IMG/VR virus record: IMGVR_UViG_3300048850_000068
Span: 32,001-96,000 of that record
Direction: 5' to 3' (one strand)
DNA from: a virus
DNA: 64,000 nucleotides
Part shown: one piece after another, positions 5,427-58,120 of the stretch
How positions within the stretch are numbered: the stretch's first letter is position 1
Layout: every line of letters begins with the position of its first letter
Notes under the pieces: generated by a model
Seen by the model: only the letters and a program-made list of their open reading frames with translations
The model's database searches: none
Told to the model about the DNA's origin: nothing
Translations under genes and position numbers: made by a program

Positions 5427-6599
5427 CTAAGCGGATATTAAGTCAGTTCTGACTGGATTATTCAGGCGACGCTCAGCCGCTTCAGCGTCGGCATAGGGGT
5501 TCTTGAGCATCCACTTCATCGCCAGGGCCGGCGTGTAGGTGTGTGCCTTCCAGAACGCCTCGCAAACCACCTCGGGCAGCACCTCGTTCGGGTCCTTCTT
5601 GTAAGGAAGTAACGCGATCTTTGACCGCACCCCGATCTTGCGCACCTTGTCGGCCGCTTCCAGGACAGCGCTGATCACCTTGGGCTCGCCGTCCCACATG
5701 AAGGTGAGCTCCTCGAGGCCGTGCGCCTTGAGCTGCAGGATGCGGCCGAGCTGGTCGTCGCCGTCGAGCGAGCCGTAGCTCAGGTGCTTGCCGAAGGTGC
5801 CGACGGCTGCCACGTCGCGCAGGTCAACCTGGGTATCCAGCGCCTTCTTGATGGAGAACACGTCGAAGGCACCCTCCCCGGCACAGGCACGCTTGGCCCG
5901 GAGTGCGTTTTGCCCGTTATACAAATACTTGCCCGTTCCAGGCAGGCCCTTGGGGAACCGGTATTTCTCATCCGACGTGCCGGTGATGTCGCGGCCCTGG
6001 AAGGTCTTGAGCTCGCCGTCGAGATCGAAGACCGGGATGATCACGCGGTTGTCGAACTTCTGCCCGCCCTGAGAGCCGTCGTCCTTCTGGTAGTTCCACC
6101 AGCCCTCGATGCAGAAGCGCAGATGGAAGTATTTCGCCAGGTCGGCGTCAATGCCGCGGGTCTCGAGGTATTGCAGATTGCGCCCGTCGGCCGTCGGCAG
6201 CGGGAAAGACAGCGGCAGCTTGACCTCGCCCACCTCGACGGCAGCCGTGGTCAGACGCTTCGGGCGCCAGCCCTGATCTTTCAGCGCCTCGACCACATGC
6301 TCGCGGGTCTGACGCCAGCCGTCCTTTTCATCCGGATCACCGTGGAGATAGGTGTGAATGAACGACAGCTTGCCCCGGAAGCGGGTGTTGCAGACGAAGC
6401 AGTTGCCGACGCCCGATTCCGCGTTGAGATAGACCCTGGAGCGCTTGTCGCCGCACGATTGCACCGGACAGGCCTCGGCATTGATCTGCATGCCAGAGGA
6501 GCCCCGCGAGAGCTTGTAGGACAGGCTCTCGCGGTCGAACCAGGATTCCAGGTCGAGCTCTTCCTCGAGCTCCTTCCAGGTCGGCCCGTTGTTGCTCAT
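5427..6599 (-). CDS. DNA primase (Zn finger + TOPRIM)
   Basis: CPVQSCG...CFVC Zn finger, RVIIPVFD, EGAFD, WDGE, KDPNE. Confidence 0.9.
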   Translation of the reverse strand: MSNNGPTWKELEEELDLESWFDRESLSYKLSRGSSGMQINAEACPVQSCGDKRSRVYLNAESGVGNCFVCNTRFRGKLSFIHTYLHGDPDEKDGWRQTREHVVEALKDQGWRPKRLTTAAVEVGEVKLPLSFPLPTADGRNLQYLETRGIDADLAKYFHLRFCIEGWWNYQKDDGSQGGQKFDNRVIIPVFDLDGELKTFQGRDITGTSDEKYRFPKGLPGTGKYLYNGQNALRAKRACAGEGAFDVFSIKKALDTQVDLRDVAAVGTFGKHLSYGSLDGDDQLGRILQLKAHGLEELTFMWDGEPKVISAVLEAADKVRKIGVRSKIALLPYKKDPNEVLPEVVCEAFWKAHTYTPALAMKWMLKNPYADAEAAERRLNNPVRTDLISA

Positions 6600-6817: not shown

Positions 6818-8187
6818 GCGCTTTCCTTCCCGAGGAACTTGGTGAGGAACTGCATCTTGGCGCGGTCCTGCTGGATGCGCAGCACGAACTCGCCCTCGGT
6901 GTTACGGGACGCGGCGAAGAACAGCCGCGCCTCGCCGATCTGCTTCTCGGCCGAGGTGGCGTTGATCGTGATGACGATATCGGCCGTGCGGATACGGTTG
7001 TAGTCTTCGGCCACGTCCGTTGCCTTGGCGATCGAGGCCTTGGCGCCGTCACGGTTGGTCTGCGTCGCAGTGAGCACGGCGGCGTTGTTCTCGAAGGCCA
7101 CGGCGCGCAGATCCACATAGATCTGGCGTGAGGCTTCGCGCAGCTCGTCCTGCACCCGCTCCGGCATCATCAGGTCGGCGTAATCGACGATGATGAGGTC
7201 GAAGATGATGCCCTTGGTCCGGTAGCGCTCGATCAGGCGACGGAGCTGCGACACCTTGAAGGTGCCGGACGCGAACTCGTGGATCTTGAGCAGGCCGGAC
7301 TTTGCCTTGATCTTACGGATCTCGTCACGGACCGCATTCGGCTTGTCCTTGAGCACCTTCATCATGGTGTTGGACAGCTTCGCGTCGAGACGATCGCCGA
7401 TGATGCGCTTGCCCACTTCGAGCGTGATGCCGAGCACGTTGTAGCCGGCCATCGACGCCATCGCGCCGTGATCCCACAGCGCAATCGACTTGCCCGACTT
7501 GGCCGGGCCCATGTAGAGCGAAAGCTCTTTACGGCCCCATCCGCCGTGAATGAGCTCCTTGTCGAGATCCGGATAGCCGGTAGTGATGCCGTCGGGCTTG
7601 ATCGTGCCGCAAGCGACCGCGATGCGGTGCTCGGTGCGGGCCTCGACCTCCTCGAAGTAATCGTATTCGCCGATATCCTCGGCCGTGCCCACCAGGCCCG
7701 CCTTCTGGACGTCTCTGATCACGTCCTCGAAGCGCCCGCGTTGCCAGTTTGCCACGCCGTCGGTGAGTGCCTTCTCGAAGGCCCGATACCGGGCGAACTT
7801 GCCAACCTCGTCGATCACGAAGTCGCGGTCCGAGATATCCTGCTGAAGCGCCAGCTTGACCCGGTCCTTGACCTCGGCGACGAGATCCGAGCGGATCTTC
7901 TTCGACTGGATCGCGTCCTTCAGGATGACGCCGATCGAACCCCGGTCCGGCGCCTTCTTGTAGGTCTTAAAGTGATCGAGCGCCACCTTGACGATCGCGC
8001 CGTCGGCGTCGTTCTCGAGGAAGCTCGGGTCGATCAGGCCGTCGGTGCGGTTGACGAACACCGTGTCGCGCAGGGTGAGCGCCACGATCTTCGATTGGAA
8101 CTCGTCGTCGAACTCATAGGTCGAGGTTGCGAGACCCTGATCCTCGTCCTCGTCGTCATTGGCTGCAACTGCGGCGGAAGCGGCCAT
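6814..8187 (-). CDS. dnaB: DnaB-like replicative helicase
   Basis: GITTGYPDLD, Walker A GPAKSGKS, IIVDYADL, TATQTNR. Confidence 0.93.
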   Translation of the reverse strand: MAASAAVAANDDEDEDQGLATSTYEFDDEFQSKIVALTLRDTVFVNRTDGLIDPSFLENDADGAIVKVALDHFKTYKKAPDRGSIGVILKDAIQSKKIRSDLVAEVKDRVKLALQQDISDRDFVIDEVGKFARYRAFEKALTDGVANWQRGRFEDVIRDVQKAGLVGTAEDIGEYDYFEEVEARTEHRIAVACGTIKPDGITTGYPDLDKELIHGGWGRKELSLYMGPAKSGKSIALWDHGAMASMAGYNVLGITLEVGKRIIGDRLDAKLSNTMMKVLKDKPNAVRDEIRKIKAKSGLLKIHEFASGTFKVSQLRRLIERYRTKGIIFDLIIVDYADLMMPERVQDELREASRQIYVDLRAVAFENNAAVLTATQTNRDGAKASIAKATDVAEDYNRIRTADIVITINATSAEKQIGEARLFFAASRNTEGEFVLRIQQDRAKMQFLTKFLGKESA

Positions 8188-53030: not shown

Positions 53031-53678
53031 ATGCCCTTCTCCATAGCCTGCACCAGTCAGAAAGGCGGCGCCGGTAAGAGCACCCTCGCTCGACTACTAG
53101 CCCGGACCTACGCGGAAGCCGGATGGCGCGTTCTCATCGCCGACTTCAACACCAAGCAGAAAACGAGCGTGGACTGGGTCGCACAGCGCATGTCGCACAA
53201 GATCGAGCCCACAGTCCACGCGGCGCCCTACCAGACCATGAAAAGCTGCCTCAAGGACATGCCGAGCTATCACATGATCCTGTTCGACGGCCGGCCGGAT
53301 TCCGATACCACCACCAAAGATATCGCCAAGGAGGCCAACTTAGTTCTGATCCCCACCGGGACCAATCGCGACGACCTTCTTCCACAGATCACTTTTGCCC
53401 TGGAACTAGACCGTGGAACGGTTTCCAAGCAGAAAATGATCTTCGTCCTGAACAAGACGAATAATAGTGATTTGGCAGTTGAGGACGCCCGTCAGACAAT
53501 CGAGCGGGCAGGCTTCAAGGTAGCGAAGACGGACATCCGATGGCAGCAAGCCTATCAGAACGCGCAGGATCAGGGACGGGCCATCTCGGAGACCTCTTTT
53601 CCTACACTGAACGAGCGGGCGGAGATCTTAGCCGCGGAGCTCGTCGAGCACCTCAACCAGATCACAGGGAGAGCCTAA
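53031..53678 (+). CDS. parA: ParA-family partition ATPase (short, type Ib-like)
   Basis: QKGGAGKST, VLIAD, ILFDGRP, VLNK. Confidence 0.9.
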   Translation: MPFSIACTSQKGGAGKSTLARLLARTYAEAGWRVLIADFNTKQKTSVDWVAQRMSHKIEPTVHAAPYQTMKSCLKDMPSYHMILFDGRPDSDTTTKDIAKEANLVLIPTGTNRDDLLPQITFALELDRGTVSKQKMIFVLNKTNNSDLAVEDARQTIERAGFKVAKTDIRWQQAYQNAQDQGRAISETSFPTLNERAEILAAELVEHLNQITGRA

Positions 53679-53977
53679 TGGCTAACAAACCACGCCCCGG
53701 CCCACCGCCGGGTGATCCAAAGCCGAAACGTCAGAAGCCGATGCGCGAGCGGCTACAGATCAATATCCCAGACGCCAAGTCGATCGGTGACAACCTGACC
53801 AAACCCACCGACGACATAGTGGACCTCAACTTCAAGATCCCAGAGAGCTTCCACCGTCGGTTCAAAGCAGAGGCGACCCTGCGCGGCATCTCCATGCGCG
53901 AGCTCCTCGAGAGTTCGTTCAAATGCTTCACGGAGGTTCATGGGTCGACCGTCGATAAGAGCCTGTTCGAGAAGTAG
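53678..53977 (+). CDS. ribbon-helix-helix partition partner (ParG-like)
   Basis: LNFKIPESFHRRFKAEATLRGISMRELL; coupled to parA. Confidence 0.75.
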   Translation: MANKPRPGPPPGDPKPKRQKPMRERLQINIPDAKSIGDNLTKPTDDIVDLNFKIPESFHRRFKAEATLRGISMRELLESSFKCFTEVHGSTVDKSLFEK

Positions 53978-54227: not shown

Positions 54228-54737
54228 ACAACTTCACCAAGGATAGGGCGCCTGGGAGTGGTTCTCCTGGGCGTCTCTCATACGGGGCGCCGTATAACCG
54301 CAGACTATCCGCCGGAGCGTATGGGTGTCCGAAGACCGCAGCATGGTTCGGACGATCCGGAGAACGCTGAGCCTGACTAATCATTTCCGGGCAATTTCAA
54401 ACCGTTCGCCAAGGATACGCCCGGAAGAGCTCGGAACACCCGAGGCAATGTATAGGCGCCCGGGCTGTCTATCTAAGACTTCGATATTTCACAGAAAATC
54501 GACTCGCTCGAAGCGCAAGCTAAGCGCTGCTAGAGACGCGCACGCGTGCACAGATGCGCAATCACTCACGACGATCATTCAATCGCGCTCACGCACGCTT
54601 AGAACGCATTTAATCGCACATCGCGAATGTATAGCGCTCATACGTATGCAAGCGCGCATGACGCACGCACACTAGCGCTACACAGTAACTCATACTAACG
54701 ATCTAGTCTGACAACGATCTAAATCGCTTTAAGAGCG

Positions 54738-54766
54738 TTGACAGTAAGTCAGCACTGACTTAGTTT
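54738..54766 (+). promoter_or_regulatory. sigma70-type promoter with 18-bp operator in the spacer
   Basis: TTGACA-17 nt-TAGTTT; TAAGTCAGCACTGACTTA at 54745-54762. Confidence 0.75.
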
Positions 54767-54930
54767 AATACTCACAAGAGAGCAACGCGACGCAGCAAGC
54801 GACACGCAAAGCGCTCTTGAGAGAACAAGTTCTCGCTGCTCTTTGACACTGTGAATAAGCAAAAGACTACAAACGCAAAGACTAGCGCGTTTCAAAACAA
54901 AGCTAGTTGCTATCAATGAAAGCGAACACA

Positions 54931-55581
54931 ATGTTCAACACTGCTACTGAGTTCAAGTCTGCTATGCTCTCTGCTATCTCTTCGCGCTTCATGTATGAAG
55001 CAAAGAAAGCAAGCGCTGAGCATAACGTCGAAGTCACTGAAGAGAACTTCAGAGACGTTCTCAAGACGAATAACTCTTCAATGTTCGACACGCTTAAAGC
55101 TATCGAAGACAGCGCTAAGCATGACGTTATTAGCAACATCATGTTTCTTGCTAACTGCGATGCTGAACGCATCAATCGCAGCGAACGCTCTAACGCACGT
55201 TACAACGTCTATGCGTATGAGAAAGATATCAACATCGCTCGCTGTGCTGCTTCAGTCGAGAGACTCAATCACTACACGAAAGCAATTCTTCAGACTGCGA
55301 AGAAATTCGCTGAGCAAGAGACTGAATTGCTACTCACTCACGACGATGCACAAAGCGCTTGTTCGCTGAGTGTGAAGACTAGCGATAGCAAGCGCGAACG
55401 TCTCATCGTCAAGTATCAGAAGCATGTGAGCGCGAAGACTGCTAGCACACAGTCTAGCTCTTCGATCAACGCTCTTCAAAGCTTCAATGTCTTGATTGAG
55501 ACGCGCGACGCAAGCAACAAAGTCGCTTATAAACTCAACATGAACAACGATCTAACGCAGCGCTTGCTTGAGCGCTGCTAA
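54931..55581 (+). CDS. Gly/Pro/Trp-free protein, paralog of 56417-57346
   Basis: INRSERSNARYNVYAYEK and VSAKTASTQSSSSINALQ match the paralog; alternative start 54916. Confidence 0.85.
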   Translation: MFNTATEFKSAMLSAISSRFMYEAKKASAEHNVEVTEENFRDVLKTNNSSMFDTLKAIEDSAKHDVISNIMFLANCDAERINRSERSNARYNVYAYEKDINIARCAASVERLNHYTKAILQTAKKFAEQETELLLTHDDAQSACSLSVKTSDSKRERLIVKYQKHVSAKTASTQSSSSINALQSFNVLIETRDASNKVAYKLNMNNDLTQRLLERC

Positions 55582-55593
55582 GCAACACTAACG

Positions 55594-55617
55594 AGAGACG
55601 CGAGCAATCGCGTCTCT
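55594..55617 (+). terminator. hairpin with GCAA tetraloop
   Basis: AGAGACGCGA-GCAA-TCGCGTCTCT. Confidence 0.6.
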
Positions 55618-55656
55618 TTACTCAAAACAACAAAGCGAACACAAGAAAGCTTAACA

Positions 55657-55848
55657 ATGTCAAAGACATTCAAAGATATGCGCGAGCTGAGCGCAGCGAA
55701 AGCGAAGAAGTTAGCGAAGACGCGCAAAGCAAAGCGCGATGTGCTCAACATGCTCTCGAAAGCATACGACACTAGCTCGCAAGTCTTCGAGTTCTTCGAA
55801 GAGAACGAATACTCACTCACGCGTGACGATGTGAAGGCGCTAGTCTAA
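55657..55848 (+). CDS. small Gly/Pro/Trp-free protein
   Basis: 63 aa, basic N-half and acidic C-half; shares leader motif with the upstream gene. Confidence 0.65.
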   Translation: MSKTFKDMRELSAAKAKKLAKTRKAKRDVLNMLSKAYDTSSQVFEFFEENEYSLTRDDVKALV

Positions 55849-56015
55849 TGATCTACGATGCAATCGACTTCACTCGCACGAACTTCGCAGCGCTGCTTGT
55901 CATCTTCGCAATGATATGCGCGCTATGTCTCACAGCAGTTACAATGTTGCGAGACTATCTCGACGCGACGCGCTACAGAGTGCGCGCACGACGCATGCGA
56001 CGCTATCGCTACTGA
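55848..56015 (+). CDS. 55-aa membrane protein, Gly/Pro/Trp-free (not in ORF track)
   Basis: TAATG overlap; MIYDAIDFTRTNFAALLVIFAMICALCLTAVTMLRDYLDATRYRVRARRMRRYRY. Confidence 0.55.
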   Translation: MIYDAIDFTRTNFAALLVIFAMICALCLTAVTMLRDYLDATRYRVRARRMRRYRY

Positions 56016-56020
56016 GTTAC

Positions 56021-56056
56021 AAAGCGCGACGCTATACAGTGTCGCGCTTTTTTATT
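56021..56056 (+). terminator. intrinsic terminator closing the island
   Basis: AAAGCGCGAC...GTCGCGCTTT followed by TTT. Confidence 0.75.
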
Positions 56057-56080
56057 GCGTTACGTTTGCAACGTTATATT

Positions 56081-56232
56081 GCCTGTGGCAGGAATGCCAT
56101 GTGGCAGCGGAGCCATGTGGCTTTGGGACCATGTGGCCCGGAAGTGACGTGGCATTCCTACCATGTGGCTTTTCCGCCATGTGGCGGGCCGACCACGTGG
56201 CTGGAATACCATATGGCGGAAATACCACGCAA
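56081..56232. repeat. CCAYRTGG array with exact 16-bp period
   Basis: Cores start at 56081, 56097, 56113, 56129, 56145, 56161, 56177, 56193, 56209, 56225. Confidence 0.88.
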
Positions 56233-56375
56233 CGATATCACACCACGCGCCATGGAGCGCCCGAACTATAGGTGTAGGAGCAGTGCTCCTACACCGGGTC
56301 CCACGGACAATGCCGTTCCTACTACCGGTGCAGCCCAGCCGTTCCTCGGAAATCCATGGTATTGCAACGGGCACG

Positions 56376-56405
56376 AAAAAGGAGGGGCGCCGCTCCCCTC
56401 CTCTC
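56376..56405 (-). terminator. intrinsic terminator for 56417-57346
   Basis: AGGAGGGG/CCCCTCCT stem with T-run on the minus strand. Confidence 0.7.
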
Positions 56406-56416
56406 TCGTCCGTGCC

Positions 56417-57346
56417 TTACGCCGCGAGCAGCTTATCCTCCAAGAAGCGTGCGATAGGGGCGTCGGTGACGTGGAACACTGGGTTCTTCTTCGAGCCCGT
56501 CGCGAAGACGACCCCGAGGGTTTCGAGCGCCTGCATGGTGGAGCTCGCTTGTGTGGGCGCAGTCGAGGCGCTGACCGTGTGCGAGACCAGGTGCTTCCGG
56601 AGAGCAGGCTCGATGCGGACCTTGTCGCTTGCTGCTGCCTTCGCGACTTCCATCGAGAAGTCGAGGCCCGCGTTCTTGAAGCGGAAGAGGGAGCGCATGC
56701 ACGCCTGGTTGATGGCGTTCGAGATCGTGCCGTCCGTCACCCCGTAGATCACGTCGGCGAGCTTGCCCAGCGCGTAGACGTTGTAGCGGCTACCGGTGTT
56801 CTCCTCGCGATTGATGAAGTCCGGAGAGACGTTGGTCACGAGGAACACACGGGCGGCGCGTTTGGTGACGAGCTGCGAGCGGACCTTCTTCAAGGTGCGC
56901 TGGATGTTCTCGTTGTCGGGGTTCTTCTGGGCCTCGAAGCCGGCGCGCTGGTCGACCGCGGCAGCGATGGTGCACACCATGTTGTCGGCGTCTTCGTCGC
57001 TCACCGCAGCGCACAGCTCTTGGAAGGTGAGTTCGGCGGGGCTCTCTTCGATGAGCTCCTCGGATGCACCCTCGGTGGCCTCGAGGATGTGGACCGCGGC
57101 CTCGAGCTCCTGGACCGTCGCCTGGCCGGCATCGACCGGGGTCTCGGTCTCGAGGGCTTCGAGCAGCTCCGCGACAGTGCCCTCGGTCACGGTGATGTTG
57201 GCGAGTTGCACGTCGATGGGCGGCAGTTCCACGGCCGGCGTCTCGACTTTCTTGGAAGAGCGAGCGCGGCGGGCAGTCTTGGAAGCGTTCTGAGCAGTCA
57301 TCGTATCGTCTCCGTGTAGTGAAGCGTTGTGCTTCGTTGCTGACAA
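56417..57346 (-). CDS. hypothetical protein, possible C-terminal winged helix; paralog of the island gene
   Basis: FINREENTGSRYNVYALGK, VSASTAPTQASSTMQALETLGVV; start may be 57301. Confidence 0.8.
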   Translation of the reverse strand: MSATKHNASLHGDDTMTAQNASKTARRARSSKKVETPAVELPPIDVQLANITVTEGTVAELLEALETETPVDAGQATVQELEAAVHILEATEGASEELIEESPAELTFQELCAAVSDEDADNMVCTIAAAVDQRAGFEAQKNPDNENIQRTLKKVRSQLVTKRAARVFLVTNVSPDFINREENTGSRYNVYALGKLADVIYGVTDGTISNAINQACMRSLFRFKNAGLDFSMEVAKAAASDKVRIEPALRKHLVSHTVSASTAPTQASSTMQALETLGVVFATGSKKNPVFHVTDAPIARFLEDKLLAA

Positions 57347-57492
57347 CTAAGACAATACTGATATCGGTGAGGGATAAAACTGCTAATTACTTAGGCCAGT
57401 AGGCAAGTTAAACGGCTGTAGGCCCGCGCTATACACCGCTCCATGGCCATATACGCGTGCGCGTTCTTCTATACTACATGAAACCTCTTGCG

Positions 57493-57599
57493 CCATGGCA
57501 CCCCATGGTCTCCCAAGGGCCCGGTTTACCCCTTGGTCTGCCGTGGTGTGCCGCGGTCTTCCATGGCCCGGAGGATTTCAGCCATGGTCTGTGCCATGG
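57493..57599. repeat. CCNNGG repeats phased at ~10 bp
   Basis: 57493, 57503, 57513, 57531, 57541, 57551, 57561, 57582, 57594. Confidence 0.7.
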
Positions 57600-57679
57600 A
57601 AATTCCCAACGCCTCTCCCTTACTCTTCTATAGGTCAGTAGGTGTAATAGGTAGTAAGGCGATGGCGTTGGGAATTTCC
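57598..57679 (+). repeat. ~80-bp inverted-repeat element, copy 3
   Basis: GGAAATTCCCAACGCC...GGCGTTGGGAATTTCC. Confidence 0.75.
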
Positions 57680-58120
57680 ACGGACGTCTCATGGAATGCC
57701 ACCCGGGACGCGGCTGATCCCTAGTCGGCTCCTGCGGCCTTACCTAATTTCCGGGAAGACGCCATGGCGTAGCACGCGGGCAAAAAGAGAGCCGAGCTCC
57801 ACGTGGGAACCCGGCTCTAAGGTCAGACGGACGAATCGCAGTAGCGCCACCTCAGCGGCAACCGGGGACCTGCGGACGTGCCGCCCTGTCAGCGAACACA
57901 GAGAGAAGCGCGCCCCTCGCTCGCGCATCGCTCAACATGTGTCTTGTGACTGAGATCGGGATGGAGTGCAACCGGACAGGTGAGGCCTTTGGGTGGTGTG
58001 AAGAGGCGGGGAGGCGCCGCGCCTCACACTGTTTCTACCCTCTCTTACGCACACCCCTCACATACGCTCTCTATAGACCACTCTCTAGGCTTACGTGTCT
58101 CTATAGCCCGGTGCCTTATG

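Follow-up and report, generated by a model that had tools for sequence, protein, structure and literature searches.

The 64,000-nucleotide stretch of viral DNA analyzed here (hereafter the window) harbors two paralogous genes, of which one, the short form, lies in an island almost devoid of the dinucleotides GG and CC, and the other, the long form, lies in DNA of ordinary composition. The window comprises bases 32001–96000 of IMG/VR record IMGVR_UViG_3300048850_000068, a 117,557-bp virus from a soil metagenome that CheckV rates as complete; an rIIA-like gene runs across the ends of the record, which is therefore circularly permuted. The avoidance of GG and CC is genuine, greatly exceeds what chance would give and dates far back in evolution. 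On balance we favor, with modest confidence, the reading that these genes are two ancient winged-helix paralogs, a long copy that would be bound to repeat arrays in the plasmid state and a GG/CC-free short copy that would belong to the phage program.

The island (coordinates of all features are given in Table 1) contains no CC and a single GG, at position 55836, which divides it into GG/CC-free runs of 1373 and 246 nt. About 150 GG/CC would be expected across it, and over its first 1371 nt alone the base composition predicts ~63 GG and ~89 CC. In a scan of the whole 117.6-kb genome it is the sole such stretch, the second-longest GG/CC-free run being 87 nt, and among the other dinucleotide pairs only TA, scarce everywhere in this G+C-rich genome, shows a comparable gap. 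The G+C content of the island is 47–48% versus 61% for the genome. Its three open reading frames (ORFs), all on the plus strand, encode the 216-residue short form and proteins of 63 and 55 residues, and glycine, proline and tryptophan (G/P/W) are absent from all three. With not one GG or CC in the short-form coding sequence, the island shows short-word avoidance in the sense of a defined word that is depleted under selection.

The avoidance recurs in relatives. GG/CC-free or GG/CC-poor runs lie over the short form in pAMS5a (1531 and 151 nt), pLM21S1 (1334 nt) and B1VFA (851 nt), and GG/CC-poor runs likewise cover it in the phages RHEph10 and RHph_X66. Across 12 IMG/VR loci a run covers the short form largely in eight, partly in three and not at all in one, always extending into the non-coding DNA on either side of the gene; run coverage was used for loci L009, L015, L019 and L001, in which ORF starts placed too far upstream inflate the coding-sequence counts of GG/CC. 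Comparison of the short-form gene of B1VFA with that of pLM21S1 reveals differences at 150 nt, 73 of them in synonymous codons, and both genes are entirely free of GG and CC. Between 27% and 29% of the possible single substitutions in these two genes would make a GG or CC, and rough arithmetic puts the chance of the observed outcome, were changes indifferent to the rule, at 0.72^150, or ~4e-22. Because the orthologs differ at 150 nt yet stay GG/CC-free, selection on the DNA or RNA is ongoing. Furthermore, in the relaxed lineages (an M. oryzae plasmid, locus L020 and, in part, locus L018) GG and CC are back in the DNA, with 66 observed versus 117 expected in L020 and 17 versus 69 in L018, while the proteins still contain only 0–3 G/P/W. 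Because relaxed DNA regains GG/CC while its proteins stay poor in these residues, the loss of glycine, proline and tryptophan is probably a lagging by-product of a rule that acts on DNA or RNA. As judged from these sequence comparisons, the constraint acts on the nucleic acid and is continuing, a mutational origin of the island is very unlikely, and some factor that reads GG/CC presumably exists.

The relaxed M. oryzae plasmid bears on when such a rule applies. By annotation it retains both paralogs, the arrays described below, virion genes and ParB-type genes beside the terminase. Fifteen pAMS5a ORFs have matches in the genome studied here but none in the M. oryzae plasmid, and three of these also match B1VFA; two of the three, encoding a GHKL ATPase resembling rIIA and an rIIB-like protein, are thus present in pAMS5a, this genome and B1VFA. 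The rIIB-like gene is also found in all four further complete IMG/VR relatives and is absent only from the M. oryzae plasmid. This hints that the GG/CC ban is tied to an infectious life style, a single relaxed complete genome being a lead and not a correlation.

The original prediction, made from the letters of this stretch, held that a GG/CC-free copy faces an ordinary homologous copy, that glycine and proline of the ordinary copy are replaced in the island copy, that the ordinary copy has an additional acidic N-terminal region and that both are probably winged-helix-like; the analysis bears out each of these points, the last as a predicted fold, and the peptides quoted in support of them are all found in the two translations. 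The long-form gene has 131 GG/CC in 885 nt and encodes 11 glycines and 11 prolines. In BLASTP the two proteins share 25% identity over 185 residues (E 1e-12), and comparison by hhalign of a 53-row short-form with a 60-row long-form family alignment gives a probability of 99.9% (E 6.7e-34, 199 columns), the consensus replacements from long to short being G to N/A/D and P to S/V. On the strength of these alignments we take the two proteins to be true homologs. The long form differs by ~95 additional N-terminal residues, of which residues 1–20 are basic and residues 31–95, which contain 16 D/E and no K/R, have a low predicted local distance difference test (pLDDT) score. In the AlphaFold2 models the pLDDT is 86.7 for the long form, exceeding 95 for most of residues 91–290, and 97.0 for the short form, with a predicted template modeling score of 0.91.

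Both models have the same order of helices and strands, namely an all-helical N-terminal domain followed by a terminal helix-strand-strand-helix, and DSSP assigns to both three helices, two strands and a final helix, the arrangement of a winged-helix fold in predicted structure. For the C-terminal ~110 residues, to which the winged-helix match is confined, VIA-align returns 2qvo as best match of the long form (Z 9.5, root-mean-square deviation 3.4, 83 residues aligned) and 6pco, of MarR type, as best match of the short form (Z 8.5, root-mean-square deviation 2.7, 78 residues aligned), with MarR, ArsR, Fur, ORC/Cdc6, kleisin and TubR chains among the lower matches. The motif T-x-x-T-Q-x-S-S-x-x-x-A-L opens the predicted recognition helix and is invariant or nearly so in both paralogs, and 12 columns are invariant over the 53 short-form sequences. 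Neither paralog matched a Pfam or NCBIfam family at that family's cut-off, so that neither is placed among the MarR, ArsR-SmtB or PadR proteins. The family search likewise gave no match to a Rep family; iteron-binding plasmid initiators (RepA/RepE/pi type) have two tandem winged-helix domains. A sequence profile search of PDB gave only spurious helical matches (E >= 0.028), and the ESM Atlas returned only clusters of "hypothetical protein". A PADLOC row assigning the long form to CARF7 (E 5.6e-4) was dismissed, as it covers the low-complexity N-terminal part. A heterodimer prediction with long-form residues 95–294 and the short form scored 0.00 with its controls unrun, and is evidence neither for nor against such a complex.

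The pair is widespread. The long form is found on six 116–119-kb "non-mobilizable" plasmids of Methylobacterium, Shinella, Rhizobium, Sinorhizobium and Pararhizobium and in ten isolated Rhizobium phage records, including RHEph10, B1VFA, V1VFA-S and RHph_X66, and at 90% identity the protein collections contain 53 clusters of the short form and 256 of the long form, with 421 representatives when the threshold is 50%. The original prediction proposed that the family phylogeny be searched for a clade free of G/P/W, and a large one was found: in a tree built from 53 short-form and 40 long-form rows the two forms fall on either side of a branch with a Shimodaira-Hasegawa-like approximate likelihood ratio (SH-aLRT) of 100. 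This tree was built by a quick method from 40 of the 60 long rows of the alignment, leaving out the other 20 and the unplaced long forms. Zero G/P/W were counted in 37 of the 53 short forms and at most two in 45, whereas 120 long forms have 12–23 in their last 200 residues. The 117 further representatives at 50% identity comprise 45 with at most two (median length 204 residues), 20 with 3–9 and 52 with at least ten (median 280 residues). The members of the short clade with more G/P/W are scattered tips, which argues that the G/P/W-free state is ancestral to the clade and was repeatedly lost. As far as these records reveal, the pair is an ancient one that has been retained across RHEph10-like phage-plasmids and phages of Hyphomicrobiales.

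pLM21S1 and RHEph10 have been assigned to a new group of plasmid-like prophages that replicate by a RepC-type system (PMC4447125; PMC5537653). B1VFA and V1VFA-S are siphophages that carry parA, parB and repC, and their terminal repeats measure 3.6–3.9 kb (PMC12509600). The accessible text of these three papers makes no mention of the island or the pair, and both are undescribed in the published literature searched, supplements such as Table S5 of PMC4447125 (the pLM21S1 gene list) lying outside that search. By eye, RHEph10 gp148 seems to be annotated on the wrong strand (L004:10797-11477, plus, versus L004:10887-11501, minus): its annotated product is rich in Cys, Arg and Leu, and the minus-strand ORF encodes 204 residues with one Gly and no Pro or Trp that look short-form-like.

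The two genes carry different control signals. Upstream of the short form, a consensus −35 hexamer is followed by an 18-bp palindrome (TAAGTCA-N4-TGACTTA) that sits between it and a weak −10 region (TAGTTT or TTTAAT), and we regard this arrangement as a putative operator-gated promoter. The palindrome occurs 23 times in the window (from 10 to 54762) versus 0.01 expected, and 35 times genome-wide, mostly in short intergenic gaps; it is absent from 54763 to the end of the window, and so from the long-form gene and the DNA upstream of it. The set looks like a genome-wide operator or "stoperator" network. Ahead of the long form stands a different conserved leader, near-identical versions of which precede both the pAMS5a long form and the next pAMS5a gene. 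Because the palindrome is at the short form only and a different leader is at the long form, we read the pair as being under two control regimes, with a genome-wide operator network to which the short form belongs and the long form does not.

The original prediction had further proposed that the same module is supplied in two versions for two stages, each gene having its own terminator with a repeat array between them. A terminator of the island operon, a terminator-like hairpin behind the long form and the array between them are indeed present, and the supply of one winged-helix module under two regimes is partly supported: the homology and the separate control signals fit a two-stage supply, but the convergent layout is not conserved. 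The genes lie 2–3.5 kb apart in all 12 loci where tblastn found both, and are co-oriented in seven related elements and convergent in seven (counted over the tblastn loci and three annotated relatives, whose short form was confirmed by profile at E ~1e-15 to 1e-16). The convergent geometry and the array between the terminators are features of this genome, not of the family.

Repeat arrays flank the long form on both sides. Seven exact CCAYRTGG cores fall in the array located between the terminators of the island operon and the long form, out of 11 genome-wide, and the island starts where this array stops. The array upstream of the long form has 14 CC-N2/4-GG cores per 160 bp against a mean of 2.1, and in most of 17 loci the densest CC-N2/4-GG windows (9–18 per 160 bp versus means of 1.1–3.3) adjoin the long form. 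Inside one array, here and in relatives, the inner letters vary (AT, AC, AA, GC, TA, GA) between an outer CC and GG that do not change. In 7 of the 17 loci, no more than 4 of 300 shuffles that preserve dinucleotides attain the CCNNGG count of the 450 bp behind the long form. The neighborhood of parA is a plasmid-maintenance context, and the arrays, the parA gene with its partner resembling ribbon-helix-helix proteins and the distant RepC of relatives suggest that the long form serves maintenance or control, not the initiation of replication. Most of the 60 long-form relatives start with a similar basic tip (e.g., M-A-R-K-x-x-K-K) followed by a variable acidic linker. This tip is reminiscent of the ParA-stimulating tips of centromere-binding proteins. 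Many relatives also share a motif I-D-H-H-S-Q-x-x-S-W at the long-form N-terminus (57242-57301, minus strand). Around the pAMS5a arrays a conserved element CCGGAAATTAGGAACGGC, with neighboring letters, occurs three times (L002:4632-4665, 6029-6065 and 6903-6935), and the window has a word resembling it at ~57739-57760, next to its upstream array.

From these features we propose the following division of labor. The long copy, of normal composition, is most likely the plasmid-state copy: its gene sits in the maintenance region near parA amid short palindromes that are constant only in their outer CC/GG and spaced by about a helical turn, and the protein probably binds these arrays as a dimer, its basic tip and acidic linker probably coupling DNA binding to another function. 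The short copy would be the bare DNA-binding body, a helical domain and winged helix with no tail, and its transcription unit would be held GG/CC-free on both strands, from promoter to terminator, by continuing selection at the nucleotide level. Because its promoter carries the palindrome found at 35 genome sites, the short form is probably switched with the phage program (infection or lytic growth) and not with plasmid maintenance. The same module would thus be supplied at a stage when templates or transcripts that bear GG/CC are unusable.

Several observations weigh against this proposal. A simple sigma-70 scan calls no promoter in 54300–57800 for either form, so that the −35 hexamer and the palindrome are what define the putative short-form promoter. 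Nothing was found by Foldseek against PDB at E <= 0.001, and neither protein has a sequence relative in Pfam, NCBIfam, PHROG or PDB. The winged-helix Z-scores (7–9.5) are in, or barely above, the range that VIA-align calls common for models lacking a clear match, for which reason "winged helix" is used here as a predicted, fold-level description that implies no family membership. The putative recognition helix is near-invariant family-wide while the array cores vary, which is unexpected for a sequence-specific reader. In the shuffle test the enrichment is moderate in 5 of the 17 loci and absent in 5, making the signal uneven, and the downstream 450 bp in this window are unenriched for the N2 core (4 versus 3.1), the array there being of the N4 type. 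In B1VFA the annotated RepC lies at a distance of ~50 kb, and the two Methylobacterium plasmids also have theirs in other places, so the long form is probably not the main initiator; the idea of it as plasmid initiator was dropped on account of this distance in the relatives, and in this genome the RepC family PF03428 has no match. Evidence of expression comes from two 151-nt contigs of a soil metatranscriptome, sequence-identical over 55534–55808 (the end of the short form and the 63-residue ORF), which could be DNA carry-over; this match is too thin to count, and the rest of 54300–57800 is uncovered and uninformative. In sum, the sequences show the homology, the common predicted fold, the antiquity and conservation of the pair, the selection on nucleotides and the distinct control signals; DNA binding by the two proteins, the array as its target, the stage of expression and the GG/CC reader are inferred.

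Other explanations account for the island in different ways. As in the first-step-transfer region of T5, it may be situated close to, or right at, one tip of the packaged DNA and have to be transcribed before the rest is inside or protected. Lacking GG/CC, it would evade a factor of host or phage origin that cuts or blocks there, and the short form would act as an early helper comparable to the pre-early DNA-binding protein A2 of T5. We consider this rather unlikely. The ends of B1VFA are indeed fixed and carry a direct terminal repeat of 3,605 bp (PMC12509600), and T5 injects 8% of its DNA before entry halts at a repeat-rich untranslated region, genes A1 and A2 being needed for the remainder (bioRxiv 10.1101/866236); the island here likewise adjoins repeat arrays. 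However, in the B1VFA record the island is at ~42.4–43.3 kb, its orientation relative to its neighbors flips among relatives, and avoidance over 1.6 kb leaves the other 116 kb open to a cutter; the terminal repeats of three IMG/VR relatives (95–127 bp) are assembly overlaps and uninformative on ends. Quite unlikely, in our estimate, is that virion DNA is chemically marked at GG/CC in a manner that hinders host RNA polymerase or DNA-binding proteins, leaving the short-form unit as the sole gene readable on incoming DNA while the long form acts on the replicated, unmarked plasmid, in line with the example given in the original prediction of modified incoming DNA versus replicated plasmid. A ban that is symmetric on both strands and spans promoter, genes and terminator agrees with some property of double-stranded DNA that disturbs transcription, and the annotation of relatives places ParB/Srx-type genes and an ABC-type ATPase next to the terminase genes. 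Yet all other early genes contain GG/CC, no modification enzyme of such specificity was identified, and the authors of the pLM21S1 study reported no DNA methyltransferase in that plasmid (PMC5537653); a weak objection is that the relaxed M. oryzae plasmid, by its annotation, keeps two ParB-type genes beside its terminase.

The family may itself be the reader, its monomers reading CC/GG half-sites and its dimers CC-N2-GG, with the long copy nucleating on arrays and the short form, made in bulk in the phage program, coating DNA that contains GG/CC while its own gene remains invisible and escapes self-silencing. In favor of this idea are the constancy of the outer CC/GG amid varying inner letters in this genome and its relatives, the abutment of island and array and the T-x-x-TQ-x-SS-x-x-x-AL shared by the paralogs at the start of the predicted recognition helix. 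It is nonetheless improbable: the M. oryzae plasmid has both genes and the arrays intact although the ban has lapsed there, other genes of lytic growth contain GG/CC, and a half-site of two letters offers a winged helix hardly anything to recognize. The idea that a context-specific deaminase or hypermutation erased GG/CC and left the short copy as a decaying duplicate is close to refuted. The low G+C of the island would agree with it, as would the changes of Gly to Asn/Asp/Glu and of Pro to Ser, which match G-to-A and C-to-T transitions. Against this, the ORFs are intact, the short form has the more confident fold, with its invariant columns and a clade that is deep and widespread, the borders of the island coincide with those of the transcription unit, Trp codons would become stops under such mutation, and relatives differ at many synonymous sites without GG or CC ever being created.

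Known systems resemble parts of this locus. Winged-helix regulators (MarR/ArsR-SmtB, AF1382 in 2qvo, BpsR in 6pco, TubR, ORC/Cdc6 and kleisin) share the helix-turn-helix and beta-hairpin wing predicted for the C-terminal ~110 residues of the paralogs, but there is no relation at the sequence level, the helical N-terminal domain lacks a clear match and the fold is a very common one. In R1 ParR/parC, TubR/tubC and P1 RepA with incC and incA, the gene of a small DNA-binding protein is flanked by arrays of its sites. The long form is similar to such centromere and iteron systems in having two flanking arrays at helical-repeat spacing in a maintenance region near parA. It differs in that binding is putative, parA has its own small downstream gene, RepC is elsewhere in the relatives and the repeats share only CC and GG; moreover, those systems are not known to have a recoded second paralog. 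As in ParG, ParR or TubR partition genes, repeat arrays lie beside the long form, here and similarly in most relatives, but these partition genes stand directly downstream of a nucleoside triphosphatase gene, and the long form is 2.7 kb from parA on the opposite strand. The island resembles the first-step-transfer (pre-early) DNA of T5 and BF23 in that a small gene set under its own control adjoins non-coding DNA rich in repeats, the present phage being ~120 kb in size and its relative B1VFA having long terminal repeats. Motif avoidance in first-entering phage DNA (PMC10644984) similarly has composition shaped by a DNA-reading factor. In contrast to both, the island avoids a dinucleotide and not a restriction site of 4–8 bp, and does so totally, on both strands and at the cost of three amino acids; its short-form gene also has an ordinary twin outside the island, and a position at the DNA end is putative here.

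Whatever the reader, the pair is a natural controlled experiment in which one fold has been held over long evolutionary time with the full alphabet in one copy and under a GG/CC ban in the other. A factor that reads a dinucleotide over a whole transcription unit would here outweigh protein conservation, a situation undescribed in the literature searched. The long copy offers a ready control for studies of binding, expression timing, gene swaps and synonymous rewriting, and a predicted winged-helix domain that is buildable without glycine or proline is of interest for protein design. If the family does read GG/CC itself, the short-form gene would be composed so as to escape recognition by the very protein that it encodes.

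Table 1. Features at and around the paralog pair (positions in the window unless another source is named).
Feature	Position	Strand	Remarks
GG/CC-free island	54463–56082	.	contains promoter region, three ORFs and terminator
Putative short-form promoter	54738–54762	+	consensus −35 TTGACA 54738–54743, then 18-bp palindrome TAAGTCAGCACTGACTTA 54745–54762
Short-form paralog	54931–55581	+	216 residues; database form likewise 216 residues
Hairpin	55594–55617	+ (terminator scan lists minus strand)	between short form and next ORF
63-residue ORF	55657–55848	+	Lys/Glu-rich, no G/P/W, within island
55-residue ORF	55848–56015	+	single hydrophobic helix, Arg-rich tail, no G/P/W, within island
Intrinsic terminator of island operon	56021–56050	+	13 pairs and T run; from terminator scan
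16-bp-period array	56081–56232	.	~ten units, exact 16-bp steps, core CCAYRTGG(C)
Terminator-like hairpin and T run	56373–56409	−	3' of long form; inverted repeat, then TTTTT
Long-form paralog	56417–57301	−	294 residues; database form likewise 294 residues
Long-form leader motif	57319–57346	−	TTGTCAGCAACGAAGC-N4-CGCTTCAC
CC-N2-GG array	57441–57600	.	CCATGG, CCAAGG, CCGTGG, CCGCGG, steps ~10–12 bp; upstream of long form
parA and overlapping small ORF	53031–53977	+	parA 53031–53678, 215 residues; small ORF has weak ribbon-helix-helix matches
rIIA-/rIIB-like pair	pAMS5a L028:32921-36818; this genome 114634–116127, and 330–1259 with 116562–117161

Alternative starts exist for both genes, a TTG at 54907 for the short form and, for the long form, a reading frame that stays open up to a TTG at 57346. 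The hairpin between the short form and the next ORF is possibly a weak terminator or attenuator, and the terminator scan did not list the hairpin behind the long form. The two small island ORFs gave nothing above threshold in Pfam, NCBIfam, PHROGs or PADLOC. For two Methylobacterium plasmids no ORF of ~1200 residues is annotated upstream of the pair; one is found there in B1VFA (B1VFA_055, L005:872-4489) and in RHEph10 (gp135, L004:1128-4682), with weak beta-helix matches only. A small tRNA cluster (Met, Asn, and Trp or a CCA pseudo-tRNA) lies ~1–1.5 kb from the island in B1VFA (L005:11680-11917) and RHph_X66 (L006:8717-8965).

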